Below, one piece after another: positions 1 to 60,049 of a DNA stretch of 64,000 nucleotides. Source of the stretch: Euglena gracilis (lineage: Eukaryota); assembly GCA_039621445.1 (NCBI GenBank), contig CP154954.1:26486954-26550953 (forward strand), read 5' to 3'. Made by a program: the position numbers and the translations under genes. The notes under the pieces were generated by a model that was given only the letters and a program-made list of their open reading frames with translations, was not told the origin of the DNA and searched no databases. Position 1 is the stretch's first letter; every line of letters begins with the position of its first letter.

Positions 1-371
1 CAGCGGGTTGCTGGTGGGGGGTAGGGGGAAAGGGGGGGATTTGGAGGGGCAGGGGGAAGGGGGGGTAGGGGGGGTAGGAGGGATAGGGTTACTGGGTTCG
101 TGCCATGTCTCTGGATACATCTGTCCCGTTCAGTCGTTGAACACAACTGAAACAGATGCTCATTTTCAGCGATCAACAACAGAATACAAACAACTCTCCA
201 ACTGTGTATGTTTATGTGCCTGTGCACTCATGTTCGGGAGTGTTCTGCGGCGTTTCAAAAATGTTCTGCAGTACTTAACGGCATTCAAGCATGATTAGTG
301 GCGGGGCAGGCAAGCTACCAAAAGATTGTCATTGTTGCGAGGAACCAGGAGAGGATGGATCTGTCCTGGGC

Positions 372-743
372 AGCTGAAGGGGTGGCCGTGGGCGTGGCGG
401 ATGGCGTGGCGGATGGCGTGGAGGTGGGCGTTGCCGACGGCGTGACGGTCGGCGTGGCGGATGGTGTGGCCGAGGGCGTGGCGGTCGGGGTTGCCGACGG
501 CGTGACAGTCGGCGTGCCGGACGGTGTGGCGGAGGGGGTGGCCGTGGGAGTGGCGGACGGCGTTGCCGACGGCGTGGCGGTGGGCGTGGCCGATGGTGTG
601 GCAGTGGGCGTACTGGAGGGTGTGGCGGAGGGGGTGGCTGTTGGGGTGGCAGAAGGCGTGGCGGTTGGGGTGCCAGACGGTGTGGCAGATGGGGTGGCTG
701 TCGGAGTGGCCGAGGGCGTGGCAGAGGGTGTGCCGGTGGGGGT
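372..743 (-). CDS. Mucin-like gene exon 23 (372 nt); the next intron runs out of the window
   Basis: GCTCTGCTTCTGacccc|ACC ... TCA GCT|gccCAGGACAGA. Confidence 0.85.
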
Positions 744-3700
744 GGGGTCAGAAGCAGAGCTTCAGGAGTCCAATGCGTTATTTTTCTGGCTCTGAAAAAA
801 ATATTCCGTTCCTTCTCCTCCTCTAACCCTTTCCTTTGGGAAGGTGTCTCTTGGCTTGACAGGATACCAAAACAGGTTCTTTCTAGGAATTTTACAGGAT
901 AAGGGTAGTGATCCACCTGGTCCTCTTCTGGGTAGAGAGCATTTGGTTCCTTTCCACTCGAAAATTACAAAACTATCAGCTTTGAACTCCCCAACAAAAA
1001 CGATGACGAACAAGAGACTTCGCACATGGATTGCACTGACAGAATTGTGTGTTCCCTGATCGCTCTGCCCCCGGATATTCACTGGGATGTCTGCACCAGC
1101 CCCCAACCCACCCCAGAGGCAAAACATTAAAGAGATGGGTGTGTGTGTGCTCCAGTGTGGCAAAAAAAAACTAAACTAGGAGAGGTGGCTCCGTCCTGGG
1201 CGGCTGAAGGAGTGGCCGTGGGCGTGGCAGATGGCGTGGCGGATGGTGTGGCGGTGGGCGTCGCCGACGGCGTGCTAGTGGGCGTTGCTGACGGTGTGGC
1301 CGAGGGCGTGCCTGTTGGGGTTGCCGACGGCGTGACGGTCGGCGTGCCGGTGGGGGTGGATGCAGAAACAGACCCCCGAATAAGCACAACTGGTGACCCA
1401 GTGTGGCGAAGTGTTCTGGGCGGGACAGAGTTCTTTTGGCCACCCAATTTTCTCAGTTGCGTCAAAGTCTTGCTGGACATTTGGCAATGTCAAGCACCTC
1501 GAGGACGTTGCGACCAACTCCCCTGCCCTTGGCAACCGGTACAACCATGAAGCTTGGAATGAGGCCCCGTTCAGCCCCGTCTTCGCCCCCAAAGCATTCC
1601 CTGCGAAAGGGAAACCCAGGTGAGTCAGACGAAATCTCAACTGAGGGGCGGAATGGGGGTGGGGGTGGGAGAGGTTAGGGGAAGGGAGGGTCAAAATGCA
1701 AAAAGAAGTGTTGCACTTTGAAGGTATGCAGATTTCTTTAAGGAGTCCCCAGCCCGGCCAGGGTGCTGCCTCATCGCAGGGGGGGGGGTCTTGCCCTCAG
1801 TGCCTTGCTGACTTGGAACACCTCGTTGGGTTCGCCGAAAGCCACCTTCACAAGAAGTCCACAGGGAGTGAAACATAACCTAACTATAAAATGAGAATAC
1901 CCCCCCCGGGGGGGGCACCTGACAGGTTGGCCAGTACCGGAGACCCTGACAACTTCCAATCATGACAGGTTGGCCAGTACCAAGAACCCTGGCAGTTTCC
2001 CGGGTTGGAGATTTGAAGAGAAAGAGAAAGTTAATGAAAATGACCCTTGCAGGTTGGCTGGTACCTGGGGCATGACAGTTTCCCGGGGGGGGGGGGGGGG
2101 AGAACGGGAAGGCTTGGTGGGTGGGGGTCGACCCCCACTCACCACAGCATTTTCACCAGTTTTGGGAAAATGGGGACGTTGCCGGGGCGATTTTAATTTT
2201 TTTGAAAAAATGAACCCAAAATGCATTATTTTTTGATGGAAACCCACATTTTTTCCGCAAAAAAAATCTCAAAAATTTCAGGTTTAAAAATTGGTACTTT
2301 GGGGGGGGGGTGAAAAAAAAAACGAAGGTAAAAAAAATTGTACCAAATTTTGGCACAGTCAAATCTTACTGACATTTTTCTCGTTGAAATTTTTTGGACT
2401 TTCAATTGCATTTTTTTCTTCAAAAACCTCTCAAAATCAAAATTTTGAGAAAATGTTGAAATTTTGGAAGGCTGAAAAAATGGTTTTAGGGGGGTGTTGG
2501 GGGGGACCCCCCGTATGGGTCCCAAAATGGGTGAAAAAACCCCTGGCGCCGAAGGCGGTGGGAAATTTTTTTTCGGGTCCAAAAATTGGTGCTCCCGGAA
2601 ATACGGGAAGAGGTGGCGGGGGGGTCGACCCCCCCACCACCTGGCAGTTCGGCCGATTCCCGTTCTGCTCTGCAGAGAGGGGGGTTAGGTTTAACAGGAG
2701 AGACATGGACACAAACTGGGAACCTGCCTTGACAGTCCAAACCCTCCCCATCCAAAAAAAAATGCACATCGGGGGTGGGGGATGTGACATAGCAGTGGGG
2801 TTCCGTCCTGGGCAGCTGAAGGGGTGGCCGTGGGCGTGGCAGATGGCGTGGCGGATGGCGTGGCAGTTGGGGTCGCCGACGGCGTGCTGGTGGGCGTGGC
2901 AGACGGTGTGGCCGAGGGCGTGCCTGTTGGGGTTGCGGAGGGAGTGGTGGTGGGAGTGCCGGAGGGCGTCGCGGACGGCGTGGCGGTCGGGGTTGCCGAC
3001 GGCGTGGCCGACGGCGTGCCGGTGGGGGTGGCAGACTTGGGCGGCGCAAACCGCCGCCAGCGACCTCACCTGCCGTACCAGCTCACTGCCTTTCCCTCCG
3101 AGGAACTAATATCACCGGGAAACTGGACTCTCATACATTTTCCTGCCGCTGGAGACAACTAGGGGACCTGCTTACGGTGGGAGGTCAACTCCCCCGGGGC
3201 CAGATGCCAAAAACGGACGTGCGAACGCCTTTCTGTGAAAGGGTTTTGGAGGCAAACTCCTCCGCGGGGGATTGACCCTGCGACCTAGGGAGCGGACACT
3301 TCCGAGGTGGGTGGACGTATCTCCCTCTGCGCTTCCGTCTCTGCAGACTGTGTGGACAGTACTAAATGGCAATGACGTCGTGATGGTAATTGTGGTGGTG
3401 GTGATTATTGTGGGCAGGAATCTTTGAGGGAAAGCGATAGGCGTGGGGGGTCATCCCGGAGGATACTTCAATGCCCAAGGTTCAAAATGCCAGAGTCAGG
3501 CTAGGGTTAGGGTTGGGGGGGGGGGAGTGGGTCAATTCAGACAAAAAGACTTGGGACATCCTCACAATTTACAGTTAATCCCAAAAAAAATCAGTGGCTG
3601 GACCCATCAAAGGGGAGGGTTAGACCAGGCAGAATCCTAAAACAAAACCGCAAAAGGCAACTGGGGGAAGATTTTTTCCAGCACTTGCAGCAGGGGAAAA

Positions 3701-6700
3701 TGAAGGAAAGCCCATTGCCCCAAAAACCACATTACTTATATTTTTTCACAAATTTTCGCAAGTTTCTGCCTGTGTTTCTGCATTTCATTCCAAGGAAATA
3801 TCACCTCACCACAAGGTGCCAAAACCAGGCTTATGATACAAGAAGTTGACGGCTTCCCCCAATTTGTGTCCTCTCGCAAACCAGACAATAATTCCAGCAA
3901 TCTCAAGGAGGACCGGTCCCTTTTATTTTCAAAAGGTTTTGATTTAAAAAGAAAGAAAGCAAGAATTGGGAAAAATTACTCTGGCGGTTCTGTCCCAGGC
4001 CTTGTGTCTGCTACCCCAAACACAACCAAAAAAAAGCTGTTGGTAGTTTGCAACGCCCGAAACAGATGGCGTGGCAGTTGGGGTCCCACTTGGCGTGGCG
4101 GACGGTGTGCCGGTGGGCGTCGCCGACGGTGTGCTGGTGGGGGTGCCAGACGGCGTCGCGGAGGGCGTGCCTGTCGGAGTGGCCGAGGGCGTCGTTGTTG
4201 GTGTGCCGGAGGGCGTCGCGGACGGGGTGGCGGTGGGCGTGGCGGACGGTGTGGCGGAAGGCGTGCCGGTGGGCGTGGCGGATGGGGTGGTGGTGGGCGT
4301 GCCGGAAGGGGTGGCGGTTGGAGTGGAGGTTGGGGTGGTGGATGGGGTGGTGGTGGGGGTGCCGGACGGCGTGGCGGAGGGTGTGCCGGTTGGCGTCGCG
4401 GACGGTGTGGCGGAGGGCGTGCCAGTTGGGGTGGGGGCAGAAGCAGAGCTCTGAATGGAAATGGGTCCAAAACGCTTCAGATGATGAAAAAAAGCTCTCT
4501 CTGTTACCCCAAGGTACCAAGGCACGAAGAAAGTGGCAGAATCTTCCGCTCTCCAAATGCCCCACACATATGTCCTTTTGGCCATCTTCCAGCCCCAGCT
4601 CTCGGAGGTTTTAAGATGGTGTGACTTGAAAAGAACTCCAGGGAGGGTGAGAAATGATACAATCGTCACCAGGGAATACACGTCCCAAACATATGGCCCG
4701 TGAATATATGTGTATGTGTGTATGTGTGAATATACATAAACAGCAAAGTTGCGAAACACGCTGTGGGTTGAGTTGCATTTGTGGCAGCCTTAAACTCCTG
4801 CCCTTGGGGGGGGGGTCTCCAGTAAGTGAACGATCGGGGGGATTAGACCACCTGGCGTTTTTCACAACAGGGACCTTTGCTTTTACTTCCCCAAACAAAT
4901 GTGTGATACAGCATCCCTGCTCCTTAGGGTTTTGGTTAATTGTGAGGGATAGGATCATGTTTAGGGTTTGGACTGGGGTTTGGGCTAGAATTTAGGCCGG
5001 TGGGCCCAGATGTAGGCCAGTATTAGGCTTAACTTAATCCAAATTTTGGCCCAGTTTCGGCAGAACCCCCTAACCTCCCAACTTTGGCTGAACCCTAACC
5101 TGCATCGCTCTTAAAAGAAACCACAACCATGATCCTTTGCCTAAAAATACAGAATTCCTCAAAATATGCCGACGTTAGACAATGGACCCCCCCCCACATT
5201 AAACCACAGGGACCCCAGGGGTTTAGAACTCCCAGTTGCACATAGGGTTCTGGCCAGAAGGGTGACCAACCAACCAGGGGGTCGGTTGTTGGACCAGGGG
5301 TCTAGAAAAAAAATGTCGGAGGGCACCCAGGACCCCCAAATAAGGTCAAATTTTCCTTCCGCGCTTTGCGCTGAAAATATTGGACAATTTGATAATTTTG
5401 CTCTATACAATCGTCCCCAGGGAGTACACATCCCAAACATACGGCCTGTGAATATGTGTGTGAATATATATAACATATAATACTATATATAACATATAAT
5501 ACTAAATATAAACAGCGAAGAAACGAAACACGCCGTGGGTTGAGTTGCATGTGGGGGGTCTAAAAGGGTCTAAAAAAAAAGGGTGGAAGGGAACCCGGGA
5601 CCCAAATAAGGTCAATCTTTTCTTTACGCCCTGTGCTTTGCGCCAAAAATTTGGGAAATTTGGTATTGTTTTGCTCAAAAAAAAGTACCAAAATTGGCAT
5701 TTGGCCGATTTTTGGTCGATTTTGGGTACAAAATTTTTCGGTCCGGCGCTCAGCGCCAGGCCAAACCTCTGAAAAAAGTGTCATTCAACCGGGGGGGGGG
5801 GGTCGTTCGACATTGGGGGGTTGTTGGACATAGAGGGGGGAGGAGGGTAGTTTAAGGGTGCCGCTTATGTGTGGGGGTTTCCCAAAGCCTGACTGGTCGG
5901 CCCACCAAACAACCAAAATGATTATTCAACTTGCCATCTGCCCGAAGGGAAAAAGGCAGGCTTAAAACCAAGGGAAGTAAGTTGAGTGATTTCCCCAAAG
6001 AGGGAATTGGCAGGGAGCAGGGAGGGAATTGATATGAAAGGTCTTCGGAAGAACTGTGGGAAAATTGTGGAAAAACTGCGGGAGTTGCAGGTTTGGGGGT
6101 TGGCACACTTCCTCTGGAAGGGACTTCAAAAAATTGCACAAATTTGGCCATTTTGCAACATAGATGTAAATTTTGAGCCGTTATTCACATTCTTTCCAAC
6201 AAAAAGGTCCAAGAAAATGAGTTTTTGTAATTTTGGGAACATGCTGATTCTGGAAATATGGAATTCCTTGGATGAAGCATCCAAAAATGGCAAAAAAAAT
6301 GACAAAAACTTTGTTATCAGGTAGACTATGGTCAGGATGAAAAATTTTCTCAGTCCGAAATTATTTCCCAGCAGAACTCGGGGAAAACACTACAAACAGG
6401 CCAAAAATTTGCCAAAATTTGTTCAAAATTTGCAAATTTTGGCAAATTTTGGCAAGCATGCAACAAAATAAACACTCCCCCCAATAGCACCCCCCCAACC
6501 CCCCCTCGGGGTCCGATTTCGGGGACCGAATTAATACCCCCCCCCCCAATTTCGGGCCAACGACCCAAGAATCACAATCTCTGACAACAAATTACGAAAA
6601 AAAAATATTTTTCTGGATCGTCTGGCCGCCAAAAATGCCAAATTTCATGAAAAAGTGAAGAAAAAAAATACCCCAAAGGGGGTTTTGGGTACTATTTTGG

Positions 6701-9700
6701 GTCCTGCGGGGCTTCAAAGATTTGGAAAATTTTGGGGTGCCATTACCCCCCAAATAACACCCCCCCCTCGGGCCGGGACTTCGAGCGAAAAAAAAATAAT
6801 ACCCGGGGGGGGTATTATTTGAGGGAGGTAAGCAAAAAAAGCACCTGGATGCCCTTATGAAACGTTCGAGAAGTGACCGGAACTCATTTTACCTTTGCAT
6901 TTCAGGTTCAGTCGAAGAAAACTGCAGAAAGGGGGGAAAATGCGGGGAAATTGCAGAAAATTTGTGGAAATTGCGGGGAAATTGCGGAAATCGCGCAAAT
7001 TGCGGAAAATTGCAGAAATTGTGGGAAATTTGCGGATATCAATCCGCCGAGCGGGGGAGGATACGACACAGCAATGGGGCTCCGTCCTGGGCAGCTGAAG
7101 GGGTGGCAGTTGGGGTCCCACTTGGCGTGGCGGACGGTGTGCCGGTGGGCGTCGCCGACGGTGTGCTGGTGGGGGTGCCAGACGGCGTCGCGGAGGGCGT
7201 GCCTGTCGGAGTGGCCGAGGGCGTCGTTGTTGGTGTGCCGGAGGGCGTCACGGACGGGGTGGCGGTGGGCGTGGCGGACGGTGTGGCGGAAGGCGTGCCG
7301 GTGGGCGTGGCGGATGGGGTGGTGGTGGGCGTGCCGGAAGGGGTGGCGGTTGGAGTGGCGGTTGGGGTGGCGGATGGGGTGGTGGTGGGGGTGCCGGACG
7401 GCGTGGCGGAGGGTGTGCCGGTTGGCGTCGTGGACGGTGTGGCGGAGGGCGTGCCAGTTGGGGTGGGGGCAGAAGCAGAGCTCTGAATGGAAATGGGTTC
7501 CAGAAGATCATGAAAGGAAGCTGAGATAAGAATGTCCTCCAAACGAATATCTCCCCCCTTGTCTGCAATGTGGCTATTGGTTTGACGCCTGTTATCCCTT
7601 ATTCTGGCCTGGCGCTGCTTTTCGCCTCTGGCCCTTTTTGTCTGTGTGCGTGGAGGTGGCCGGAGCCTGGCGGGACTGACTTCCTTTACGACGCTGTCCA
7701 CCATGTCCACCAAGTGGCTGCCAGGCACATACTCCACTTTAGTTGGGTGGGGGGTCTTCTTCACCGTGACTACGCTCTGGTAACTCCAGTCCATGACCCC
7801 AGCAGGTGTGGTTCGGACGAGTCCCCTGAGTTGGGAAGGAACTTGTGGGTGGGTCTGTCCTAGGCCCGAAGGCACCTCATGGGGCAGCCCTGTCCCGCGA
7901 GTACACCCACTTGGAATCTGGTCAAGAACCCCCCTCCTGGGGACAAAGGCAAACCTAATTTCACCTACCCCCCCCCCCCCGGAAGCTGTCACCTGAGAGG
8001 TCGGTACGAGACCAGAACAGGGCGTCGCTAAACCATCCAGGGGGGTCCAGCTGAGAGGCTGGAACATATGGGCTGGTTGGGAAAAGGCTGCTAGCTGACC
8101 CCCCCCCCCCACAGGGCTGAAACGAGCCCCGACCCGGGGACGACGACATGGGTGGCAAAAATCGAAACTGCAAAAATGTCCCCCAAAAACAGCCAATTAA
8201 GCAAGAAGTCGATTGTTTGACCGAAAATTATCCTGGCCCGCCCATTTCCGACCCATCTCCTCCCCATTTTTATCCCATTGATTACACCCCAAAAGTAAAA
8301 AAAAAATGGCAGCTGGAAAATAGCTAAAACTCGTCAATGGGGGGGAGGGCGGTTCGACGCTGGAAAAAGCCCCCCCTCCATCCTGGTGGGGGATGGGATG
8401 TCCTCCAGCTAAAGTGATGCATGGCACCGGAAATCCTGACAACTTCCTGCTGTGACAGATTGGCTGGTACCAGGGACCTTGACAATTTCCCAGATGGGAA
8501 ACTGCCAGGTTCCCTTCAGGCTCACTCTGGGAAAACGTTGAACACAAGCATTTTGAAACACTAAAAAAAAGGCCTTAAACTATGGCAACAGAAATTGTGT
8601 GTTTGGGGTCCTTTTCATGCAGACCTTTGTGTTGTTGGTCAGACATGTAAATCAGGTGTTCGACGAAGGGGTTGCCATAACTCTTTTTTAGCAGTGGGCA
8701 AACAATACTCTTTTATTTGATGGATGGATGCAGGATGTGCAATAAGTTATAAAAAGAATGAAACGTAAATGTTGTCACCCGATTATGCGATGTATTTCCG
8801 AGAAGCGAAAAATCGACTCACAAGAATGACGAGGATGTATGAACGCCGAGATGACTGGTGCACTGGTGCAATTCCGCAAAGAAAATTGTGTAAATGACTT
8901 CCAATTCTTTCTCTTCTGAGTCCCCAGAGTTTCATGGGATGGGAATGTTCCCCCTTGTTACCCCAAGGTTCCAAGGCACACAAAAAAAAGTGGCAGAATC
9001 TTCCGCTCTCCAAATGCCCCACACAAATGTCCTTTTGGCCATCTGCCACCCCCAGCGCTCAGAGCTCTTAAGGTGGTGTGACTTGAAAAGAACTGCAGGG
9101 AGGGTAAGAAATGATACAATCCTCCCCAGGGAATACACATCCCAAACATATGGCCTGTGAATATGTGTGTGTGAATATATATAACATAAAAATACTATAT
9201 ATAACATATAATACTAAATATAAACAGCGAAGAAACGAAACACACCGTGGGTTGAGTTGCACGTGGGGGGTCTAAAAGGGTCTAAAAAAAAAGGTTGGAG
9301 GGCACCCGGGACCCAAATAAGGTCAATCTTTTCTTTACGCCCTGTGCTTTGCGCCAAAAATTTGGGCAATTTGATATTGTTTTGCTCAAAAAAAGTACCA
9401 AAATTGGCATTTGGCCGATTTTTGGCCGATTTTGGGTAAAAAATTCTTCGGCCCGGCGCTCAGCACCAGGCCAAACCTCCGAAAAAAGTGTCCTTCGACC
9501 GGGGGGGGGGGTCGTTCGACATTGGGGGGGTTGTTGGACATAGAGGGGGGAGGAGGGTAGTTTAAGGGTGCCACTTATGTTTGGGGGTTTCCCAAAGCCT
9601 GACTGGTCGGCCCACCAAACAACCAAAATGATTATTCAACTTGCCATCTGCCCAAAGGGAAAAAGGCAGGCTTAAAACCAAGGGAAGTAAGTTGAGTGAT

Positions 9701-12700
9701 TTCCCCAACGGAGGAATTGGCATGGAGCAGGGCAGGCTTCTTTTTAAGACCCCCGGGGGGGAGGGGGGGGGGCCCCCCACCCACCCAGGGTGGCGCAGGA
9801 CCCCCCCCCCCGGGGGGGGGGGGGCCAGGGACCCCCCCCAAAATCGGGCCCGTTAAAGGCAATTTTCAAAAATTTTCGGCGCTTTGCGCCGAAAAGGTAT
9901 ACCCAGCGCCTCCGGCGCGGGACCCCCCCCCCCCGGGGGGGGGGGGGGCCGGCCCGGACCCACCCCCCCCCCCCCCCCCCCCCCCCCGGGGGGGGGGGGT
10001 CAGGTGACTTAAAAAGAAGCCTGGAGCAGGGAGGGAATTGATATGAAAGGTCTTCGGAAGAACTGTGGGAAAATTGTGGAAAAACTGCGGGAGTTGCAGG
10101 TTTGGGGGTTGGCACACTTCCTCTGGAAGGGACTTCAAAAAATTGCACAAATTTGGCCATTTTGCAACATAGATGTAAATTTTGAGCCGTTATTCACATT
10201 CTTTCCAACAAAAAGGTCCAAGAAAAGGAATTTTTGTAATTTTGGGAACATGCTGATTCTGGAAATATGGAATTCCTTGGATGAAGCATCCAAAAATGGC
10301 AAAAAAAAATGACAAGAACTTTGTTATCAGGTTGAATATGGTCAGGATTTAAAATTTTCTCAGTCCGAAATTATTTCCCAGCAGAACTCGGGGAAAACAC
10401 TACAAACAGGCCAAAAATTTGCCAAAATTTGTTCAAAATTTGCAAAATTTGGCAAATTTTGGCAAGCATGCAACAAAATAAACACTCCCCCCAACAGCAC
10501 CACCCCCCCAACCCCCCCTCGGGGTCCGATTTCGGGGACCGAATTAATACCCCCCCCCCAATTTCGGGCCAACGACCCAAGAATCACAATCTCTGAAAAC
10601 AAATTACGAAAAAAAATTATTTTTCTGGATCGTCTCGCCGCCAAAAATGCCAAATTTCATGAAAAAGCGAAGAAGAAAAAAAAAGACCCCAAAGGGGGTT
10701 TTGGGTACTATTTTGGGTCCTGCGGGGCTTCAAAGATTTGGAAAATTTTGGGGTGCCATTACCCCCCAAATAATACCCCCCTCGGGCCGGGACTTCGGGC
10801 GAAAAAAAATAATACCCGGGAGGGTATTATTTGAGGGAGGTAAGCAAAAAAAGCACCTGGATGCCCTTATGAAACGTTCGAGAAGTGACCGGAACTCATT
10901 TTACCTTTGCATTTCAGGTTCATGCAAAGAAAACTGCAGAAAGGGGGGAAAATGCGGGGAAATTGCAGAAAATTTGTGGAAATTGCGGGGAAATTGCGGA
11001 AATCGCGCAAATTGCGGAAAATTGCAGAAATTGTGGGAAATTTGCGGATATCAATCCGCCGAGCGGGGGAGGATACGACACAGCAATGGGGCTCCGTCCT
11101 GGGCAGCTGAAGGGGTGGCAGTTGGGGTCCCACTTGGCGTGGCGGACGGTGTGCCGGTGGGCGTCGCCGACGGTGTGCTGGTGGGGGTGCCAGACGGCGT
11201 CGCGGAGGGCGTGCCTGTCGGAGTGGCCGAGGGCGTCGTTGTTGGTGTGCCGGAGGGCGTCACGGACGGGGTGGCGGTGGGCGTGGCGGACGGTGTGGCG
11301 GAAGGCGTGCCGGTGGGCGTGGCGGATGGGGTGGTGGTGGGCGTGCCGGAAGGGGTGGCGGTTGGAGTGGCGGTTGGGGTGGCGGATGGGGTGGTGGTGG
11401 GGGTGCCGGACGGCGTGGCGGAGGGTGTGCCGGTTGGCGTCGCGGACGGTGTGGCGGAGGGCGTGCCAGTTGGGGTGGGGGCAGAAGCAGAGCTCTGAAT
11501 GGAAATGAAGATGATGAAAGGAAGCTGAGATAAGAATGTCCTCCAAACGAATATCTCCCCCCTTGTCTGCAATGTGGCTATTGGTTTGACGCCTGTTATC
11601 CCTTATTCTGGCCTGGCGCTGCTTTTCGCCTCTGGCCCTTTTTGTCTGTGTGCGTGGAGGTGGCCGGAGCCTGGCGGGACTGACTTCGTTTACGACGCTG
11701 TCCACCATGTCCACCAAGTGGCTGCCAGGCACATACTCCACTTTAGTTGGGTGGGGGGTCTTCTTCACCGTGACTACGCTCTGGTAACTCCAGTCCATGA
11801 CCCCAGCAGGTGTGGTTCCCAAGTCAGTGAACGAGTCCCCTGAGTTGGGAAGGAACTTGTGGGTGGGTCTGTCCTAGGCCCGAAGGCACCTCATGGGGCA
11901 GCCCTGTCCCGCGAGTACACCCACTTGGAATCTGGTCAAGAACCCCCCTCCTGGGGACAAAGGCAAACCTAATTTCACCTACCCCCCCCCCGGAAGCTGT
12001 CACCTGAGAGGTCGGTACGAGACCAGAACAGGGCGTCGCTAAACCATCCAGGGGGGTCCAGCTGAGAGGCTGGAACATATGGGCTGGTTGGGAAAAGGCT
12101 GCTAGCTGACCCCCCCCCACAGGGCTGAAACGAGCCCCGACCCGGGGACGACGACATGGGTGGCAAAAATCGAAACTGCAAAAATGTCCCCCAAAAACAG
12201 CCAATTAAGCAAGAAGTCGATTGTTTGACCGAAAATTATCCTGGCCCGCCCATTTCCGACCCATCTCCTCCCCATTTTTATCCCATTGATTACACCCCAA
12301 AAATAAAAAAAATGGCAGCTGGAAAATAGCTAAAACTCGTCAATGGGGGGAGGGCGGTTCGACGCTGGAAAAAGCCCCCCCCTCCATCCTGGTGGGGGAT
12401 GGGATGTCCTCCAGCTAAAGTGATGCATGGCACCGGAAATCCTGACAACTTCCTGCTGTGACAGATTGGCTGGTACCAGGGACCTTGACAATTTCCCAGA
12501 TGGGAAACTGCCAGGTTCCCTTCAGGCTCACTCTGGGAAAACGTTGAACACAAGCATTTTGAAACACTAAAAAAAAGGCCTTAAACTATGGCAACAGAAA
12601 TTGTGTGTTTGGGGTCCTTTTCATGCAGACCTTTGTGTTGTTGGTCAGACATGTAAATCAGGTGTTCGACGAAGGGGTTGCCATAACTCTTTTTTAGCAG

Positions 12701-21700: not shown

Positions 21701-24700
21701 GGCTTTGACGGGACAGACTTGACGGGACAGAGGATTTTGGGAATCAAAAAAAAATTACAGCGCACATCGATGGGGCTCCGTCCTGGCCGGCTGAAGGGGT
21801 GGCTGTGGGCGTGCCTGATGGCGTGGCAGTTGGGGTTCCGGTGGGCGTCGCCGACGGTGTGGTGGTGGGCGTGCCAGTGGGAGTTGCTGAGGGCGTGCCC
21901 GTTGGTGTCGCCGATGGCGTGCCAGTGGGGGTGCCGGAGGGGGTCGCCGAGGGGGTACCGGTGGGGGTGCCGGACGGTGTGGCGGACGGTGTGTCGGTGG
22001 GCGTGCCGGAATTTGGGTGCTGCAAACTGCCTAAGTTTTGGCCACAATGGTCGTTGATGTGCACCGATAGAGCGCTTTGATTTGTGTAATTTGTTCCGCT
22101 CAAACTCACACTGGTACAAATGAGTAGATCTTTGACAGGGTAGCATGAATTTTGACATGCACACCCAAATTGCAAGTGATGATGGGGGCCACTTTTTGAA
22201 AGTCCTAGAAGGTGGCGCCCATGCCCGTAAAACGTTGTTGGGATGTGGTCAGGTAACCCAGGACCGCAGGGGAAATGCAAGGACTTTGAACATTAGGGTA
22301 CCTTGGAGCAGGTGTCCCCACAGAATACAGGGCATGAACACCTTGCATGTGTGTTCGGGAACCTTCGAACGGCTGCCTCATCAACTCAGGATGCTCTGGA
22401 ACGATTTGGGGAGGTGAGACCAGGCCTTCACAATGCATACACTTTGACTTCCGAGAAAAAATTGTTGGTTACTTTGCAAACAAAAGAACCACTTGCGCAA
22501 ATGCGCACAGGAACCACTGTAACTGCCACAACGGTTTGTGCAGCTGCTGGAAGGCCGGAACGGACAGTTTCTGCACTTGAGCAAATGCTTCCTTTTCGCA
22601 TTTGTGCAAAAGAATATTGTGCGACACCAGTTTGGAATAGGAATCAGAATATTGTGTGATATAATTTTCTGCAATTATGCGAATACATCAACACGTTGAT
22701 TTAATGGAAATTGAATATGGCAAAGGACCTACCTGTCTTCTGGGACCAAATTTGGGCTTCTGCAGTTGAGCCTGTGAAAAACCATTTCTGACCCTGAAGC
22801 GTCAAAATAAACGGAACCTGAGGTTTTACTCTCGAAAAAATGAGTTGAAAGGTGCCCTTTATCCCTGGTAGTTTTTCGAAAAGTGAGGTGCAGTACATTG
22901 CCTGCGAATGGGATCTTTTGCTGACTGAAAAAAAAAATTGCGCTTAGGGGGGCATATGATGCAATATGTTGGCATGCTTTTTTGGCAAACACAGATATGC
23001 TGTGCAAACATCTCCATTTTGTGGACGCGGTGTTTCCACTGTCCTCCTGTCTCAGAAGTCCACCCTGTTAAGGATTGAAAACAATGAAATTAACTTTGGA
23101 ACACTTGCCCCAAGAAAATTCACAAATGAACTGCTCCTATGCGCAATTGCACACAAAGGAAGCATTTGGGGAACACAGCAATGTTCATGGGGAAGGGGCC
23201 CAGCACCATCGGAACACAGGAGAGGGAATTATTTTACAGCTCCAAAAGGCAGGCATAGGAGGTTGTTGTTGGTTTTGAAACGGTTCCTTTGTGCATTTGT
23301 GCAAAAGAACCCTGTTTATTGCTGCTGTGTGAGTCTCACAGAGTCTCAGTGTAAATGGGTCGATGTGGCTGACCTGCACAGAGCTGAACTGGTAACCAGA
23401 ATTTTTAGAGTTCTCTAACATTCTGCTTCAACCTGCAAAACAAACTCCTCTCATAACAAACTTCAAAAAACCCCCCACACTGTGCTGCATGGCAAACAAA
23501 AAGCAAGCAAAAGGGTGGACCTTTCACTCGGCCTCCATACCACCTGGCACTGGTAGTTGTCAGACAGGCAATGGAATCAGGGGTTTGGGGGTAATTTTGC
23601 GGAATCCATTGTTTCCCAGATATCAACTTCAGGAAACAAGAACTCTGCACCATGTTTCGGAGGGTCAAAAACATCAAATTTCGGCCTTTCCCCTGGGCCT
23701 GACCCCCGAAAAATTGTACAAATCCACATGAAACGTGAAACAGGAATTCCTTTGCGCAAAAGGGCACAGGAACACAACAAATTTTAAATGCTGGCAAGGG
23801 TCAAAAACTTGCTCCATTCACTCAATGGACGTGACTTGTAAAATGAACAAAAATTAAAAGTTTCCCCAAAGACTTTTACTCACCCCCACACAAATCATGG
23901 AGATGCGCAAATGGCTCACACAGATAGGCCAGGCCGTTGATTTCATACGGCGTGGTGATCCGAGATCCACTGCCTAAGGCTGGTTCAGGGGTGAGGTCCA
24001 TTCCGACTGAAGGGACGACCTGATTTTTCTTCCGACACAATGCATCCGACACCTGAGGCAAGGTCGACACTTATTTGGAGGGGGCAAAAGACGAACACCA
24101 TTTTCTTCAGTCCTGGTACCACGAGAAGGAGATGGGCATGTGCATTAAGCGCCGCAAGGTGAATTAGAGATGTTCATTTGGAGACCCATAGTACCCATCG
24201 CAGGGAAGTGGGATTCGAAATGGCGTTGACGTTCTTTCACTTAACTGGCGCAACAGGACAACGGAAGGATTTGCAGCGCCCGAAACAGATGGTGTGGCAG
24301 TCGGGGTCCCACTTGGCGTGGCAGTTGGGGTTCCGGTGGGCGTCGCAGACGGTGTGGTGGTGGGCGTGCCAGTGGGAGTTGCCGAGGGCGTGCCCGTGGG
24401 TGTCGCCGACGGCGTGCCAGTGGGGGTGCCGGAGGGGGTCGCCGAGGGGGTACCGGTGGGGGTGCCGGACGGTGTGGCAGACGGTGTGTCGGTGGGCGTG
24501 CCGGAAGGCGTGGCCGTGGGCGTGCCCGAGGGTGTGGCGGAGGGCGTAGACGTCGCTGTGGCGGATGGGGTGGCGGTGGGGGTGCCGGACGGTGTGGCGG
24601 ACGGTGTGCCGGTGGGCGTAGCAGACGGCGTGGCGGATGGCGTCCCAGTTGGGGTGGGGGCAGGGGCGGAGCTTCATAGAACACACCATCATTATCCCAG

Positions 24701-27700
24701 CGCATAATGTGCAACCGCACTCACCTCTGTTAAATCTTTAATGCTCTCCCCCCCCCGAAATCCTTGTGCAAGCTGATTTGCTGCACGATGATTGCATGGG
24801 TGTACTCATGTCTGTCCATTTGCAAGAAACTCACGTTTGTTGCCAGTGGTCATTTTTTCCCGTTTTGAAAATACCCCTGATAAATGCCCCCAGTTTGAAA
24901 CTCGCTGTCTGGGGCATCATCCCCTTCCATCACCCCTTGGGCCTTGGGTCCTACAATACACAAGGAACAGGGCAAAAAATTGGGCAAAGCTGAGGAGGGG
25001 ATGACAATTATCCACTTGGATAAATGGAAAATAAAATCTCTATTTACATTGAAATACACTTTGAGTGCTTTGAAACCCAAAGTCATGTGTAAACCCAAAG
25101 AGAAAGTCGTGTATATGGAATTAATTAACTTTTTTTGTTCGTTGCAGAATTAACAGGGCAGGGGGCGAAAATTAGCACAGAGAGAGGAGTGACGTTTTCG
25201 GCAGGTGACAAATCAGCTGGAATAGAGGGAAACTGCAGGGGGGGGGGGCTGAAAAAAAGAACTTGAGGAAATGAGGTCCTTTTTCTGAGGTGGGCATTTG
25301 TTACGTCCGTGCGAGTTGCAATGCATTTTGGGACTTTGGGACTCCCCCTCCACCTGTTCCACGAGGAGTCTCTGGAGCAGCTGGAGAGAGTTCATCCCCG
25401 AGTTTTGATTGGTTTTTGTTGGGTTTTGAGGAAATCCAGAAAGCTGGGCCCCACACCCCAATCGCAGTGGTCTGCCCTGGAGCTTCAGCAGATGTTTCGA
25501 AAGGACTTGAATCTATTCAGAGATCAATCTCAACCCCTGAACCGTCCTACCCCGACTCGGAAACCAAGGATCCTCCTACGGTCATGGGAGTGCCAATAAC
25601 AAGACAAACAAGATCAGCGTATGACAAAGGCAGGGCTTCGTTTCCTTCAACCACTTCACCCACTCCATGGTGGCATTCTGGGTAGGGGAAAATAAGGAAC
25701 ATGGAAAGAAGTTGCCGGCTCTCCTTTGAATTGCCAATCCAATCAAGGTTTTAAAAGGGGGGGGGGGCAAATGCGGCAGATGGCTCTGCCCTGGGAGGCG
25801 GACGGTGTGGAGGTTGGCGTGCCGGTTGGGGTTGAAGAAGGGGTGCCGGTCGGGGTCCCGGATGGGGTGGAAGTGGGGGTGCCGGACGGTGTGGCCGATG
25901 GGGTTCCTGTTTGCGTGGCAGAAGGGGTGGCGGTTGGTGTCCCAGTCGGGGTGGCTGCAGTGGCAGGGCCCGCAGGGCCATGCAATTTTTTTCCCGACCC
26001 CTGGGGGGATCACTTCCACTCTTCCAAAAACCAGTCAATCACTTTTTTTCTTCTTCGAAAAACCAGTCAGTCACCGCCCCCCCTCCCCCGGGGTGGTCGG
26101 TCACTCTGAAATCCAAGGGAAGTTTGACCACAAAAGGAGGAAAAAGGCCCAAAAATTGCTGGTCGCTAGGTCACTTTAGTGTATTTTCGACCCCCCTGGG
26201 GCAGGGGATCTGGGCCAAAAACCAGTCAGTCATTCTGAAAAACCCATTCACCCACCCTGGGGGGGGGGGGTCGGCCAGTGACTAGTGATTGTATGTGCAG
26301 GGCCCTGTTTGGTGGAAAAGTCCAACCCTCCCCACCAGAAGTTGTCACAGCGAGTATAACTAGTTTAAGCCTGGGGCAACGAAGCCTGGGGAAGCCCTGC
26401 AGCGGACTTCCCATGGCAGTTGTACGAGGCCCAAAGTGGCAGCTTCCCGGGGGAAAGCAACATTCTCATGGAAATAATAAATTCCCCGGGGAGTGGGAGG
26501 GACGGAGATGACATGACAGATGAGAGATGAACGAAAATAAATAATAAAAAAAGGCAGCACAAAGGCGTGGCAGAAAGGCTCTGCACTGGACAGCGGAGGG
26601 TGTGGTCGTGGGCGTGCCGGTTGGCGTGGTGGAGGGGGTGCTGGTGGGGGTTGCGGACGGCGTGCCGGTGGGGGTGCCGGACGGCGTCGCGGAGGGCGTG
26701 TGCGTCGCCGTGGCGGACGGCGTGGAGGAGGGGGTGCCGGTGGGGGTCGCGGAAGGTGTGCCAGTGGGTGTGCCGGTGGGCGTACTGGACGGTGTGCCGG
26801 TGGGCGTGCCGGAGGGCAGGGCCAGAGTTGCATTCAAAGCCTGGGGATCTCCAGTCAACCTGAATGTGACCAACCCCTGGGGGGGGGGGGCTGTCTGCCT
26901 GGGTTGACTGCCCCTCCCCCCCCCCCCTGTGGTGGGGTCCACCATGTCTCAAAATTCAGCCTGCCTCCAGTGCCTGTTGGAGAGAACAATGCTGAAACCC
27001 AGGGGGAAATGCAGGAAATGGCGTTCGCATTCAGCAAATTGCAAAGATTTTGGTTTGGGGAATCAAAAAATCCTCTTCCTCAAAAATTTCACCGCAGAAA
27101 GAAAAACCGAGAAAAAATATCCTCAAGAAATGGGACTTCTTGGAAGGTGGCCAAAAACAGAGGGGAAGGGGTGGTCCCAGACCCCTCCCCTTGGAGGGGG
27201 GGGGGGTAAGGGGCCGACCACCCCGGGAATTACCCTGGCGCGAAGCGCCGGAAATTTCAAAAGGAGCTTCAAAAAGCTAAAAATTTGTTTTCAGGTGAAT
27301 TTCTTAACCAAATTGTCAAAAAAAAAGGATATAAAAGCATAAGATTTTTCAGCCAAAGTGCCAGGAAGAATGTTTTTTTGGCTCCAAGGAGGACCCCGAA
27401 CCCCCCCCTCAGCCCGGGGGGGGGGGGGAGCTCCCTCTCCTCTCCACCTGTGCCTCCCCCTTTTTTCAAACGATTGTCAGGAAGTGTTCAACTGCCTTCC
27501 CCAGAATTTTTGGGAAAAATAATTGGGGGTGGCATCTATGAAGAACCTAAGTTAGCCAGTCCGGGCCCGAAGGCAGGGTATCAAGTGAGCGTTGGTTTTG
27601 TACCTCCCGCCCCCCTTGCCCAACGACCAAGTTTGTCCAACGACCCCGCTCCCGGTCAGATGAGATCTCTTTGTATGCGATGTTGGTTCAATCCTTGTGA

Positions 27701-30700
27701 AAATAATTTTTATGATTTAATATCGCTTTTTTTGCATTTGCGTGTTTCAGAGAAGCTTTTTTTGCAATTTGTTGCGATGATTACCATAAATTGGCTGAAA
27801 ATACCCAAAATGGCATTAAAAAGGCCAATAACTCCAAAAAAATGGTTCCAAATTACCCAGAATGACTCAAATTGATGTAAGTGTGTGAGAGTGTGACAAA
27901 CGAAAAAAAGCTGTTTAAAGTTAGTTTAAAAAATTCCCAAAATGGCCAAAAGCGGCCAAAAAAAATGTAAAAAAAAGGCCAAAACAGCCCAAAATGGCCA
28001 TATACCTCCATGTGTGGCCAATTTTTTTGGCGGACCTGTCCCCCCCCCCAATCTGATGACCACCCCCCCCCCAGGTCAGAGACAGACATTGGCTTTTTTA
28101 GCGACCGCCGGGGAGCGTTCGATGGCCAAAGTAATCTCAGCAACCATTGTGCTCAAATAATGCTCAATTAGCTCAATTGAAACCAACCAAACTTGGGTCG
28201 CAAGTGTTCCCTGTTGCAAGGAATGGTACATCCTGCCCTCTGTCCTTGACACGCCAAAATACGGGGGAAATGCGGTTGACAGGGGGGGTGTCATGGACAC
28301 GCTGTGTTATGTGCAATGGACAAGAAAGAAAATGGCATGTTGGGTACGGGAAAACTGTAGTGCGGGGGAGGGGGGGAATCAACCAAGCACCTTCCAACAT
28401 AACGACACACCACGCTGCTGCTGGATCGATGGGGTCACAACAGGGGGGGCAGCCCTGGACGTATCGGTGGGCGTGCCGGTTGGCGTGGTGGAGGGGGTGC
28501 CGGTGGGGGTTGCGGACGGCGTGCCGGTGGGGGTGCCGGACGGCGTGGCGGAGGGCGTGTGCGTCGCCGTGGCGGACGGCGTGGAGGAGGGGGTGCTGGT
28601 GGGGGTGGGGGCAGGGGCTGAGCTTGCACGACCATGACGGCAGCCTCACACTTGTGGGCCCCCGGGGGGGGGGCACCAGTATGATGGGAGGTTGTCCATC
28701 CATGGTCCAGAAAGCGTGATGTGTGTACTCCGGGAACGTCTGCCCAATTGGAGTGGTTTTTTTTGAATTTTCCGCCAGGTGTGAGAATTAACGCCTAATT
28801 CAAGCCCAGTCTTATGCCTAAATGCCCAACCCCAACTTTTTCCTCCGAATATGAAATGCAAGGTGCGGGATCCATCGCGTGCCTGACCACCTCCACGCTT
28901 GAAAAACGTCCAAGGTTCCTCAAGGGGGATACAAGGGGACCATTAAGATGAGGCTGCCAGCATTTCTTCCAATCAGCCCATCGGTGCAAGTGTCGGTGGA
29001 TGTGTCTCATTTGTTATTAGTTGCCATCAAGGGTGGGGGTTGTATGGGAAGGCCATGAGGGGGGGAGGGTCGACCTCCACCGACAATGTCACCGCGCAAA
29101 AAAAAATATGATGAATCCAAAAAAATCCAAAAAAAATATGGGAAGGTGGTCGCTCAAGCTCCTGGAAAAATGGGAAGCTGGTCGTGGGGTGGGGGCAGAC
29201 CTCACCAAACAAACCCGTCAGTGATGTGGGGGGCTTGCCGCCCATCCCAGCCCCCCAGAGGGCTTCCGGGATTCCCATCCGGCCACAGTTCAGGGGGCAA
29301 GTGTTTGGGAAGTGTTTGGGCTTCAGCTCCCGGTGCAGACACAAATTTGAGTAGCAGGCAGAGATGTCTGTACCGTGCACGACCAGGGCTGTATGGGAAG
29401 ACCTGGTGGGCAGAGGTCGACCCCCCCCCACCACCCACCATCCATAGGCTTTCAAGGATTTTTGCAGCGCCGCCTGTTGTGCCTGAGCGAGGACATCCGC
29501 CGACGGCGGGCCTCGCTCGGCCAGCGGCTAGGCCAACAGTTGGGAAGCCAGCCAGCCAGGTGTGTGCACACGACGGACAAGCCGGCGTGTGCGTGGGCCG
29601 AGATTAGGGTGTCGGCCCTAATTTTTTTTAAGACCGGGGGCCCCCCCCCCCCCCCACCCACCCACCCCCTGGGCCCACCCCCAGGGGGTCCCAGGGGACC
29701 CACTCCATTTTCCCTGAAAATGGCCCAAAAATCGCGAAAAGTGCCAAAAATAGCACCTTTTTCAAAAAATTTGGTGCCTTCGACACCCAAAAGTATAACT
29801 CACCAGCCCCTGGGGGGGACCCCGGGGGGGGGGGGCTCGGCCGGACCCACCCACCCTACCCTCTCCCTCCCTGAGGGTCCACAATTAAAAAAAACCCCTG
29901 GCCGAGATGGAAAACCACAAGGTGCAAAAAAAAAGGCAGAGGCAGAAAACATGAGGGGCAGCAGCGGCAATTTCAATGCAGGTTCACCCTCGGTCCCTCC
30001 TTCCTTCAGGAGGATTGAGGCGCACTTTCTTGTGGGCCATTTTTGGAGGAAAAAAAATTCAACCGGCGCTCACCGTCACACACGGCTCAGCCCTGAGCAG
30101 CAGAGGGCGTGGCCGTGGAGGTGGCAGTGGGAGTCGCGGATGGCGTGCCCGAAGGGGTGGCCGACGGCGTCGCGGTGGGTGTTCCGGTTGGTGTGGCGGA
30201 CGGTGTGCTGGTGGCCGTCGCGGACGGCGTGCCGGTGGGGGTGCTGGACGGCGTGGCGGAGGGCGTGTGCGTGGTCGTGGCGGAGGGCGTGGCAGGATTT
30301 AGACGGTGGGGAGGGCGGCCGGCAATATGAACGAATGTGAGAAACATATCTGCCCCCCCCCTCGGGACATTGACCTGACAACTCAGCGAGTACGGGCGTA
30401 CATGACAACTTTCCAGTGCGGTTACGTGGCATGGTTGTGGACTTTCTAATGTATCACGTCAGCCATTACGCCACGTCAGTCAGTATGCACTCCAAGGTGA
30501 CAACTGCACGAGGGGGGGGGGGTAGGGGGGGGGGGCGAAATGAATTAAACGCCAGAACAATTTTTGGGGGGTTGATCACTCAGTCGAGAGCCAGGAAAGG
30601 CAGATCGGATAGGTTTGCGGTTGCTCAAAAAAAAAACACAAAAAAAAACACAAAAAGACGCAAATTGCAAGGGAAAACCTTGTCAGGCTTCTTTTTAAGA

Positions 30701-33700
30701 CCCCCGGGGGGGGAGGGGGGGGGTCCCCCCCCCCACCCACCCAGGGTGGCGCGGCCCCCCCCGGGGGGGGGGGGGGGCGGGGACCCCCCCAAAATCGGGC
30801 CCGTAAAAGGCAATTTTCAAAAATTTTCGGCGCTTCGCGCCGAAAAGGTATACCCAGCGCCTCCGGCGCGGGCCCCCCCCCCCCCCCGGGGGGGGGGGGG
30901 GGTCCGGCCCGGACCCACCCACCCACCCCCCCCCTCCCCCGGGGGGGGGGGGGTCTGCTGACTTAAAAAGAAGCCTGAACCTTGAGGTCCGAGATGCACA
31001 TCTTTCCATTGGAGAGGACTTAAAAAAAATTTTAGCTCCGATGGGGAAAATTTTCCATTTTCCATAAAAAAAAAAGCATTTGTTGACCAAAAAATGCAAC
31101 AATGACTAAAAAATGCCAAAAATTTTGGTCTCAGGGGAAAATCGAGGCCAAAACGAGAAATTTTCCAGAGTCAAAAATATTTTCATGGAAAAATCCAAAA
31201 AACGTTTGGGGGGGAAACAAAAAATGCAAAATAAATAGGAAGAGGCTCGGGAGTCTCTTGAAACGCCGTTCGAGGTCGTTGGAGGAGGCTCGATAGCCTC
31301 CTCGAATGCTGTTCGAGGTTGTTCGAGGGGGACCCCCAAAAAATTCAATTTTTTACTTCCTAAACTTCAGTCCAATATTTTTTGTACTTCGGACAAATTT
31401 TCGCCCAAAAAAAGTGCCAAGAATGGCATTTGGGCCGATTGGGGGAAACTTTTCCAGCCCGGCTCTTCGCGCCTGAAAAAGAAGGTCCGCTGGTCCCACC
31501 TGCCCTTCGTTGAACCCTGCCCCCCCCCCTTCCCCCAGGGAAATCGACCGCCTGCCCACCCAACACCCACCTAAAATCAACCGGCCGTGCTGGACTGATC
31601 CATGGGGTCCCCCAAAGCCTGGGGAGGGGGGCTTCCAACCCACCCACCCACTCTTGAAAACTCAACCTCCCATGGGAGGGGTCACACAAAGCGTTAAATG
31701 AATGAACCTAATATCACACGCTCTTGATGTCTATGTTCTGGGATTGTGCCGTTCACGCGGGTAGGTGTCATGGACGGGGAGGGAGGGAGGGCGGGCAGCA
31801 ATCCAGCAAATTGGACGGTGGCAAACTATCCGTTTCCATCGAACAAGTTGGCTGGAGGCGGGGACCTTGATTGTTTTGACTACTCAAATAGTACCAGAGG
31901 CCAGACAATTTCCCCGGCATGGAGGTATCCAAACCAGTGGAAGGAAAGGATGCCAATGAAACAAATGCAAAGTTGGGGAACGTTGGGGTACTCATGAGCA
32001 AATATACATTATCATATCTTAAATTGAAATTGGGGGCAAGGTGTATCTGTTTCGAGCGGGAAGAAATGTTGGCTGCAAAAAAAAGGGTGTTGAGGCAGTG
32101 TGCGCTCGAGTGGCTGGCCCTCTGCGCCGCCTAAAACAGAAGGGGTGCCTGAAGGCGTGGCTGTTGGAGTTGCGGTGGAGGTACCAGATGAAGTGGTGGT
32201 GGGTGTGCTGCTGGGGGTGGGCGCAGGGGCAAAGCAGAAAATACCACGCCACACGGCGCTTTTGCGGGCTGGACCTATTCGCGCCACTGCAGAACCTCGA
32301 AGAGCATGGAGCAAGGTCGGACGCACAGACAGGAGTGGTCGTGACACCGCCCCATTCTGATCCCGAAGAAGAACCCCTCCCCAAGGTTTTGGCTCCTTGG
32401 GGGGTCTTAAACAGGTGGGACATAGAAGTCTGAGTGCCGTTTGTGTGTGAGGCTACTGTCTGAACAAATTGCCCGTGGCATTACATTTTTCCAATTGTCC
32501 TTAGGGGTTAAAGCTGACGGACTCAATGCGAAGCTTGTTGATGCCTGTTGATGTTGATGCGATGTGGTGCAGGCTTGTTTTAAGAACACAGGGGGAAGTG
32601 GGATGATACCTTCTGCTGTGTGGTGCCCACCACAATCCCTGGGGGGGGGGGTCGATGAGCTCTAATCCTTTGATGGGTAAGAGCGAAACCCACCACCAAG
32701 AAAAACCCTCCTCTGACCCCCCATGCAAAAATGGCTGATGAGAACGATGGGAAGTCAGTCATTTTATTGGGATGAAGATTTTTCGTAGAATTTTCCTTTG
32801 TGATGAAAAGCAATATGCGACCCTTTGCCAATATGCGACACCTGGCCAAAAAAAAGATAACCACCTTTAAGACGAATTTGCAGGGTCGCACCTATTCAGG
32901 ATGCAAATCTGACCCCCCCCTCCCCATGACCCAGTAGCCCATTCCAGGAACTTTGTTTCAATGAAAAATGGCCATTGAGTTCCAGGATTCCAGGAGAGTT
33001 GCGCTTCTGATTTACCTAATTTGCACCAAGTTCGAGTATGTCTGTTTGACTTGGTCTAGCACCAAAAAGGACTGCAAAAAAACACACAATTTCTGCAAAA
33101 AACGTGCATTTTGGAAATAAATACATTGCCCCAGGAAACTGCCACCTGACAAGTACAATACCAGGACCCTAATAACTCTCTCTAATGACGGGTTGGCGAG
33201 TACCGGGGACCCTGACAGTTTCCGAGGCAGGAACCTAACACACAGAGGGGGTAATGGCCGCACAGCATACTTATGACCCCACCTGCTGCACCCAGCATGG
33301 GCTCGCAGGTCCATTGTTTCCCTGCTGCGGGGACCCCAAGAGTCCTGCCTGCTCATAGCACCCCTTTGGGGGGAGGATCCTTCCTTTAAAAAAAAATGTG
33401 CACACACACACACATACTCACTCACTCATCACTCACTCACTCACTCACTCACTCACTCACTCACTCACTCACTCACTCACTCACTCACTCACTCACTCAC
33501 TCACTCACTCACTCACTCACGCACGCACGCACGCACTCACTCACTCACTTGCATGCATGTACACTTGTATGAGTGAGTGAGTGAACACGTGCATGCACAC
33601 TCACCATTCACTCATTCATACACACGTATGCACAGGCGCAATCATACAGACACATGCAGAAACGCACACAGCATTGCCCTGGGCGGCGGACGGCGTCCCC

Positions 33701-59900: not shown

Positions 59901-60049
59901 AGGGTACGGGGGGGGCAGGGGGTAGGCGGGGGGTGGGGGGGGGAGGGGTCCCGGGTTTTTCTTTTCCCAGCAGGACCGTCCGATACCACAATGTACTCAT
60001 GTGACAGAACCAGTGCCAATTCACCGCCGCCACCCTAAGCCACTGCCCG

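Follow-up and report, generated by a model that had tools for sequence, protein, structure and literature searches.

The Repeat Gene and Its Intron Family

The DNA analyzed here is a stretch of 64,000 nucleotides from Euglena gracilis (assembly GCA_039621445.1, contig CP154954.1, positions 26,486,954 to 26,550,953 of the forward strand), referred to as the window, in whose coordinates all positions are given. Its minus strand carries a putative mucin-like gene composed of about 18 stop-free exon blocks which encode Thr, Pro, Ser and Ala in a repeat with a period of four amino acids. Translated on the minus strand from about 35363 down to 318, the repeat exon blocks begin with ...TPTG and most of them end with ...TPSA. 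Twelve introns of a single family interrupt this gene at one and the same position of the repeat, PSA|TP (numbered as in Table 1). They are very probably euglenid-type nonconventional (NC) introns, which arose by duplication of one ancestral PSA|TP intron and whose paired ends are needed.

A preliminary description of the window had listed five pairs of complementary intron ends at a shared PSA|TP position. All five pairs were found, all of them on the minus strand, and their coordinates coincide with intron borders predicted by the published Euglena rule. Introns were identified by searching the gaps between exon blocks for this rule, with the requirement that the reading frame be kept. The frame-aware search returned 744-1201, 24656-25796, 25953-26591 and 32219-33684 exactly, 28607-30098 was checked directly, and the same search yielded seven further introns of the family, which brings the total to 12. 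The shared position holds for all of them, as every join reads PSA|TP. The exon blocks lie in differing genomic frames and thus form a single reading frame only when the intervening DNA is removed. The lengths of the introns correspond to 0, 1 or 2 modulo 3, and all 12 rule-based joins are in frame and leave the repeat of four amino acids unbroken. We infer from the DNA that the locus would be transcribed and spliced at the predicted borders.

The borders themselves are uniform. CAG at +4..+6 and CTG at -8..-6, and with them a 5' spacer of 3 nt and a 3' spacer of 5 nt, are present in 12/12 family introns, a count which is partly circular as a test of the spacers since the borders were set by the rule and the reading frame. 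Like CAG and CTG, the pyrimidine before the intron and the A after it are invariant (12/12): the upstream exon ends with C or T, the intron ends with C and the downstream exon starts with ACC in all 12 cases, and the first base of the intron is G in 11/12. AG at the intron end was found in 0/12, GT at the intron start in 1/12 and the combination GT/GC-AG in 0/12. The family introns are not conventional U2-type spliceosomal introns.

The seven exons that have family introns on both sides measure 156, 216 or 372 nt, are all stop-free multiples of 12 nt, and all start with TPTG and end with TPSA. The repeat gene has very probably grown via tandem duplication of exon-plus-intron units, whereby one ancestral intron at PSA|TP would now be present in at least 12 paralogous copies. 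Within 4433-19040 lie four tandem units, each consisting of a 372-nt exon and an intron of 2.7-3.8 kb, and their identity of 89-98% indicates a recent intragenic tandem duplication. The alignment of the shortest of these four copies spans only 53-61% of the other copies, and I10 is 89-94% identical to I11-I13 across 61-98% of its own length. A protein search for longer proteins with exon 24290-24655 returned no near-identical relative among 164 matches at E<=1e-10; all of these matches (31-82% identity) are low-complexity Thr/Pro linkers, and the proteins concerned are unrelated ones from bacteria and diatoms.

Pairing of the Intron Ends

The ends of the family introns were compared in one fixed register, in which pairs 1-5 run inward from CAG/CTG, one base on the 3' side is left unpaired, and pairs 6-11 follow. 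In this bulged register 10-11 of 11 pairs are standard in 12/12 introns (11, 10, 10, 11 and 10 for the five introns described before, in ascending order of coordinates), whereas the register without bulge gives only 7-8 of 11 pairs in all 12, which bears out the earlier observation that a 1-nt bulge is always present on the 3' side. The bulged base is C in 11/12 introns and T in 1/12. Duplex folding of the 22-nt ends with ViennaRNA recovered the same helix at energies of -11.2 to -26.6 kcal/mol. In cofolds of 45+45 nt, the helix was found in 6/10 family members, and local hairpins outcompeted the weaker stems that contain two G.U pairs. The bulge after pair 5 is missing from 42977-43898, an intron which fits the code but lies outside the family, and this argues for family inheritance; the constant bulge looks like a trait inherited within the intron family and not like a general rule.

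Other parts of the preliminary description require qualification. The ends do pair over 10-11 of 11 positions, but not cleanly in every case, as 24656-25796 and 25953-26591 each contain one A.C and 32219-33684 contains one T.T. Several G-U pairs had been reported as tolerated; two are present in 744-1201 and none in the other four introns considered at that time. The stems had furthermore been called terminal, and the ends are indeed paired, but the helix is set back from the intron termini, with CAG 3 nt and CTG 5 nt away from them.

Covariation and Conservation

The 12 introns reduce to 8 distinct end pairs, as five of them share identical stems. Among these 8 rows, 83/88 cells are paired (94.3%), and double-sided change is seen at 4/11 pairs, namely at position 4 (G-C, U-A, A-U and G.U), position 5 (G-C and A-U), position 7 (A-U, U-A and G.U, plus one A.C) and position 8 (G-C and A-U). 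When whole 3' halves were reassigned to the 8 rows in each of the 40,320 possible orders, the observed pairing percentage was reached by 18 permutations, 6 of which equal the true assignment because three rows have a common 3' half. By column shuffles it was reached in 0/2000 cases, and with the register slid by 1-3 positions only 33-44% of the cells were paired. The sequences are paralogues, so these shuffle counts overstate independence. The covariation signal is real, if modest, and the earlier statement that the two ends vary in concert is confirmed. All 8 downstream-group introns retain the G.U pairs at positions 4 and 7, and four of these introns have unrelated interiors.

Mean ungapped pairwise identity was profiled for nine introns, the three near-copies being omitted. 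It amounts to 0.71-0.80 in the flanking exons, 0.71 and 0.76 in the spacers and 0.77 and 0.79 in the half-stems, drops to 0.31 in the 11 nt just inside the stems on either side and lies at 0.25-0.31 deeper in the introns. The constrained element measures about 14 nt on the 5' side of the intron and about 17 nt on the 3' side, and its inner limits coincide with those of the helix. The interiors had been described as unrelated, and in line with this blastn detected no match at E<1e-5 between any two of the five introns concerned.

Further Introns and Other Sequence Features

Two introns which fit the published code lie outside the paralogous family, one at another codon position of the repeat gene (I4) and one in Thr-rich exons upstream of it (Table 1). 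A candidate intron at 33839-35100 (minus strand) has the inverted motifs CTG...CAG and an in-frame join; its stem is weak (-10.7 kcal/mol) and its status uncertain. A further group is formed by three minus-strand introns of the repeat gene with tentative borders (30267-32140, 22005-24289 and 3030-4066), whose preceding exons end with ...CC(A/T) TCT and which begin with GTTT(C/T)(G/A)GGCG and have no 3' AG. Visual inspection shows 9-15 nt of complementarity between their two ends. In cofolds of 57+57 nt, the ends paired only in 22005-24289, and the 3' end of 3030-4066 favored a local GC hairpin. A fit of these three introns to the code was rejected, as the only in-frame solutions that obey the rule lead to implausible joins.

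Table 1. Predicted features of the repeat gene and its upstream region, with the end pairing of the introns
Feature	Position	Strand	Pair number in preliminary description	5' half-stem	3' half-stem	Pairs	Remarks
Thr/Pro/Ser/Ala repeat exons	318..35363	-					about 18, putative mucin-like (TPSA TPTG ..., period 4 amino acids); stop-free blocks
I1, NC intron	32219..33684	-	5	33671-33681	32224-32235	10/11	N3 GCC, CAG, CTG, N5 CGCCC, exon starts A; T.T at position 9; in-frame join PSA|TPSS
I3, NC intron	28607..30098	-	4	30085-30095	28612-28623	11/11	all Watson-Crick; duplex of 22-nt ends -26.6 kcal/mol
I4, probable NC intron	26818..28460	-					other codon position; N3-CAG...CTG-N5|G; in-frame join PTDT|PSG; weak stem, -11.4 kcal/mol
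I5, NC intron	25953..26591	-	3	26578-26588	25958-25969	10/11	A.C at position 9, T-A at position 4; starts GT, ends CC; join PSA|TPTG
I6, NC intron	24656..25796	-	2	25783-25793	24661-24672	10/11	A.C at position 7; join PSA|TPTG
I8, NC intron	20835..21788	-				11/11	same family; 2 G.U; join PSA|TPTG
I9, NC intron	19413..20618	-				10/11	same family; A.G at position 6, A-U at position 4
I10, NC intron	15192..19040	-				11/11	one of four tandem copies; U.G at position 6
I11, NC intron	11477..14819	-					tandem copy; stem identical to I8, I12, I13 and I16
I12, NC intron	7465..11104	-					tandem copy; stem identical to I8, I11, I13 and I16
I13, NC intron	4433..7092	-					tandem copy; stem identical to I8, I11, I12 and I16
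I15, NC intron	1358..2813	-				10/11	same family; A.G at position 10, bulged base T; four extra C-G pairs past the common stem
I16, NC intron	744..1201	-	1	1188-1198	749-760	11/11	2 G.U; join PSA|TPTG
Upstream NC-code intron	42977..43898	-					outside the paralogous family, in upstream Thr-rich exons; N3 GGC, CAG, CTG, N5 CCTCC, then A; duplex -24.0 kcal/mol; in-frame join SATPT|RTASPT; no bulge after pair 5

A search of the whole window against Rfam gave 0 matches, and inspection by eye of the open reading frames in 35500-64000 revealed no recognizable conserved gene. On the minus strand, 39172-40284 is occupied by a long, perfect-looking repeat of 12 nt that reads (TYLP)n in one frame, with all three frames open; it looks like a minisatellite and is not clearly a gene. 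Also on the minus strand, 59767-62640 holds an open frame of 957 codons whose Pro-rich repeat has a unit of about 16 residues (…PLPMPAGTPGPAPYLCQPA…); two further frames are likewise open, and the DNA in which it lies has a G+C content of 76% and a strong GC skew. The introns and the intergenic DNA contain many homopolymer runs of 8-11 C or G (for example 24748-24756, 25243-25252, 25760-25768 and 26268-26277), which give PPPPGGGG strings when translated.

Discussion

The borders of the family introns were compared with published rules for euglenid NC introns. Nomura et al. described the signature 5'-N3CDG-/-CH'GN5-6|R for E. agilis and E. gracilis, based on genome-wide data and knock-in mutagenesis (PMC12501133). 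According to that paper, splicing was blocked by single substitutions in CAG or CTG as well as by a 1-nt change of the 5' spacer, a knock-in in which the complement preceding CTG was swapped for a non-complementary run abolished function, and among complementary swaps of the middle base CTG-CAG alone was functional (PMC12501133). For E. gracilis, Gao et al. reported CCAGG at +3..+7 and CCTG at -9..-6 (PMC11170887), and the family introns match these motifs, those of the upstream group with GC-CCAGG... and ...CCCTG-CCCCC. Milanowski et al. found pyrimidine|purine at both junctions and C as the third base of the downstream exon (PMC4770533); the family introns follow these border rules, the sole exception being the G at the intron start, which is present in 11/12.

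Conservation confined to stems and spacers, compensation above the level of partner shuffling and the published knock-ins together argue for RNA-level constraint on the paired ends and for their importance in splicing. The preliminary description had likewise proposed selection on the RNA, and the stem-confined conservation and the compensated changes speak for it; however, its argument from G-U pairs is weak. Counted by event, there are 3 G.U and 2 A.C, and the strand asymmetry between G.U and A.C was discarded as proof of RNA-level selection since 3 versus 2 events are too few. The further proposal that structure rather than sequence defines the splice sites can be retained in part: the helix matters, but the sequence and spacing of CAG and CTG matter as well (PMC12501133).

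Following this, we propose that in the pre-mRNA CAG (+4..+6) and the next 8 nt would pair with CTG (-8..-6) and the preceding 9 nt, one of which is bulged, and that the resulting helix would draw the two intron borders together. A machinery which is probably not the U1-dependent spliceosome would then cut 3 nt before CAG and, ahead of a purine, 5 nt after CTG, and these cuts would join TCN GCY to ACC. By analogy with published cases, the intron would probably be released as a circle. Circular excision, the lack of U1 complementarity and the need of motifs and pairing for splicing are taken from the literature; the motifs, the spacers, the pairing, the covariation, the sharp conservation boundary and the frame-restoring joins were observed at the present locus. 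If the helix is needed, substitutions in the stem would be tolerated as G.U intermediates or compensated, and the interiors could drift freely or be replaced. The proposed scheme would extend beyond the family to the two other introns that fit the code (26818-28460 and 42977-43898).

Several observations weigh against this interpretation. In folds of whole introns with 15-nt flanks, the stem was part of the minimum-energy structure in 0/8 cases, with pair probabilities <=0.2, which is taken as a limit of minimum-energy folding of long RNAs. Among the 8 distinct rows, five non-pairs are uncompensated. The G-C/A-U split at position 5 separates the upstream half of the gene from the downstream half, and this, together with the paralogy of the copies, leaves few independent double-sided events (about four) to be set against the five non-pairs. 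For the same reason of paralogy, the 12 frame checks amount to approximately one independent test of the border offsets. Moreover, three other introns of the repeat gene (30267-32140, 22005-24289 and 3030-4066) do not have CAG/CTG where the code would place them.

It had also been suggested that partner-specific stems prevent exon skipping. Only a portion of the gene shows partner specificity: for I1, I3, I5 and I15 the cognate 3' end is clearly the better partner. The 5' end of I3 forms 11 pairs with its own 3' end versus 8 with that of I5, the 5' end of I1 forms 10 versus 8 with that of I3, and I15 with its private 4-bp extension reaches -15.9 kcal/mol with its own 3' end versus -7.7 kcal/mol with that of I16; additionally, the true partner assignment lies close to the top of all permutations. 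By contrast, the stems of I8, I11, I12, I13 and I16 are identical, I9 and I10 share one 3' half, the 5' end of I6 pairs at 11/11 positions with several foreign 3' ends versus 10/11 with its own, and permuted partners are on average 86.5% paired. Given these identical stems and common 3' halves, stem identity cannot keep the exon order across at least six consecutive introns, and the suggestion that partner-specific stems prevent skipping was not upheld. All exons in this region have lengths that are multiples of 12 nt, so that skipping them would leave the reading frame intact. It is conceivable, albeit improbable, that the interchangeable half-stems in at least seven consecutive phase-0 introns permit in-frame exon-skipped mRNAs and a mucin-like protein of variable length, with only I1, I3, I5 and I15 being partner-specific; in that case the promiscuity of the stems would allow combinatorial skipping, which reverses the earlier idea of prevention. 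Somewhat less probable still is the original proposal, namely that each stem diverged such that a 5' end recognizes its own 3' end only and skipping among near-identical exons is thereby prevented.

The complementary ends might alternatively be terminal inverted repeats of independently inserted transposons similar to miniature inverted-repeat transposable elements (MITEs), with the covariation reflecting element subfamilies and not selection on RNA. A MITE-like origin of NC introns has been proposed in print (PMC12501133, PMC11282704), and the unrelated interiors would agree with it. However, all 12 introns interrupt a duplicated exon unit at one and the same codon and have the same spacers and the same bulge, which points to descent by duplication and not to repeated insertion. 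Furthermore, no target-site duplication was seen at the borders (N3 GCC versus N5 CCCCC), and the G.U pairs kept at positions 4 and 7 in all 8 downstream introns would be mismatches in inverted repeats of DNA. We therefore regard repeated transposon insertion as very unlikely.

A comparably slim chance is given to hitch-hiking, in which gene conversion between the repeated exons reaches a few bases into the introns and keeps their ends alike while the pairing itself is not selected. The stems abut the exons, and their identity (0.77-0.79) equals that of the exons (0.71-0.80), as hitch-hiking would have it. Nonetheless, the two halves of a stem flank different exons, and conversion would for that reason affect each end separately; it gives no account of changes that are matched across introns of 0.5-3.8 kb (4 double-sided pairs, 18/40,320 permutations). 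Moreover, identity falls to the random level precisely where the helix ends, at the 5' side as well as at the 3' side. That the array is unexpressed, a pseudogene or satellite-like repeat in which the supposed introns are spacers, is hardly credible, for although no close protein relative was found, which is not evidence of silence, the exons have no stops and lengths divisible by 12, exon-level conservation has sharp limits, and the splicing-code elements are all intact.

Provided that the introns of this gene are NC introns held by their paired ends, the locus represents a natural experiment: 12 paralogous copies in one transcript combine interiors at random-level identity with an 11-bp helix conserved at the level of the exons, and natural variants of the stem (A.C, T.T, G.U and a stem extension) are present among them. 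It also poses the question of how the machinery pairs the right ends when several introns of one pre-mRNA have identical stems.

Comparison with Known Systems

The closest counterparts are the Euglena NC introns of Nomura et al. (PMC12501133), with which the present family shares the positions of CAG and CTG, the spacers of 3 and 5 nt and the purine at the start of the downstream exon, as well as the complementarity after CAG and before CTG, the non-GT-AG borders and the variable length and content. No tested feature differs, and the available part of that paper makes no mention of a constant bulge following pair 5. Splicing of the present family is predicted from the DNA. In homologous NC introns of different Euglena strains, for example tubB intron 9 of E. 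agilis, compensatory changes preserve the terminal helix, and mutations that create bulges or internal loops were found as well (PMC4770533). Conservation there is highest in CAG(G)/(C)CTG and extends to other stem positions only inside groups of homologous introns (PMC4770533). A full-text literature search on compensatory change in NC introns turned up this paper, its 2013 predecessor, which likewise deals with euglenids, and one unrelated paper. Those introns are orthologues of different strains, whereas the copies described here are paralogues within one gene that would have arisen by exon-intron duplication.

Among more distant systems, the noncanonical introns of hemistasiid diplonemids have the same non-GT-AG borders and the same extensive pairing of their ends (PMC12621601). 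According to the part of that paper available, they show no strong sequence bias at the 3' end, whereas the present introns have the exact euglenid CAG/CTG and spacing. Transposon-derived introners, e.g., those of Amoebophrya, likewise possess terminal inverted repeats and, in some lineages, non-canonical borders (PMC11282704). Introners have target-site duplications, whereas none were seen at the borders of the present introns, whose shared codon would be due to duplication of the host exon.

The compensatory evolution, helix, motifs and spacers of euglenid NC introns are already published and genetically tested, and the locus accordingly adds little new biology in these respects, since the helix, CAG/CTG, the 3/5-nt spacers and compensatory change were known. 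Comparable cases may be contained in the supplements of the papers cited; what is specific here is the occurrence of a dozen paralogous copies in one repeat gene with a conserved bulge of one base.

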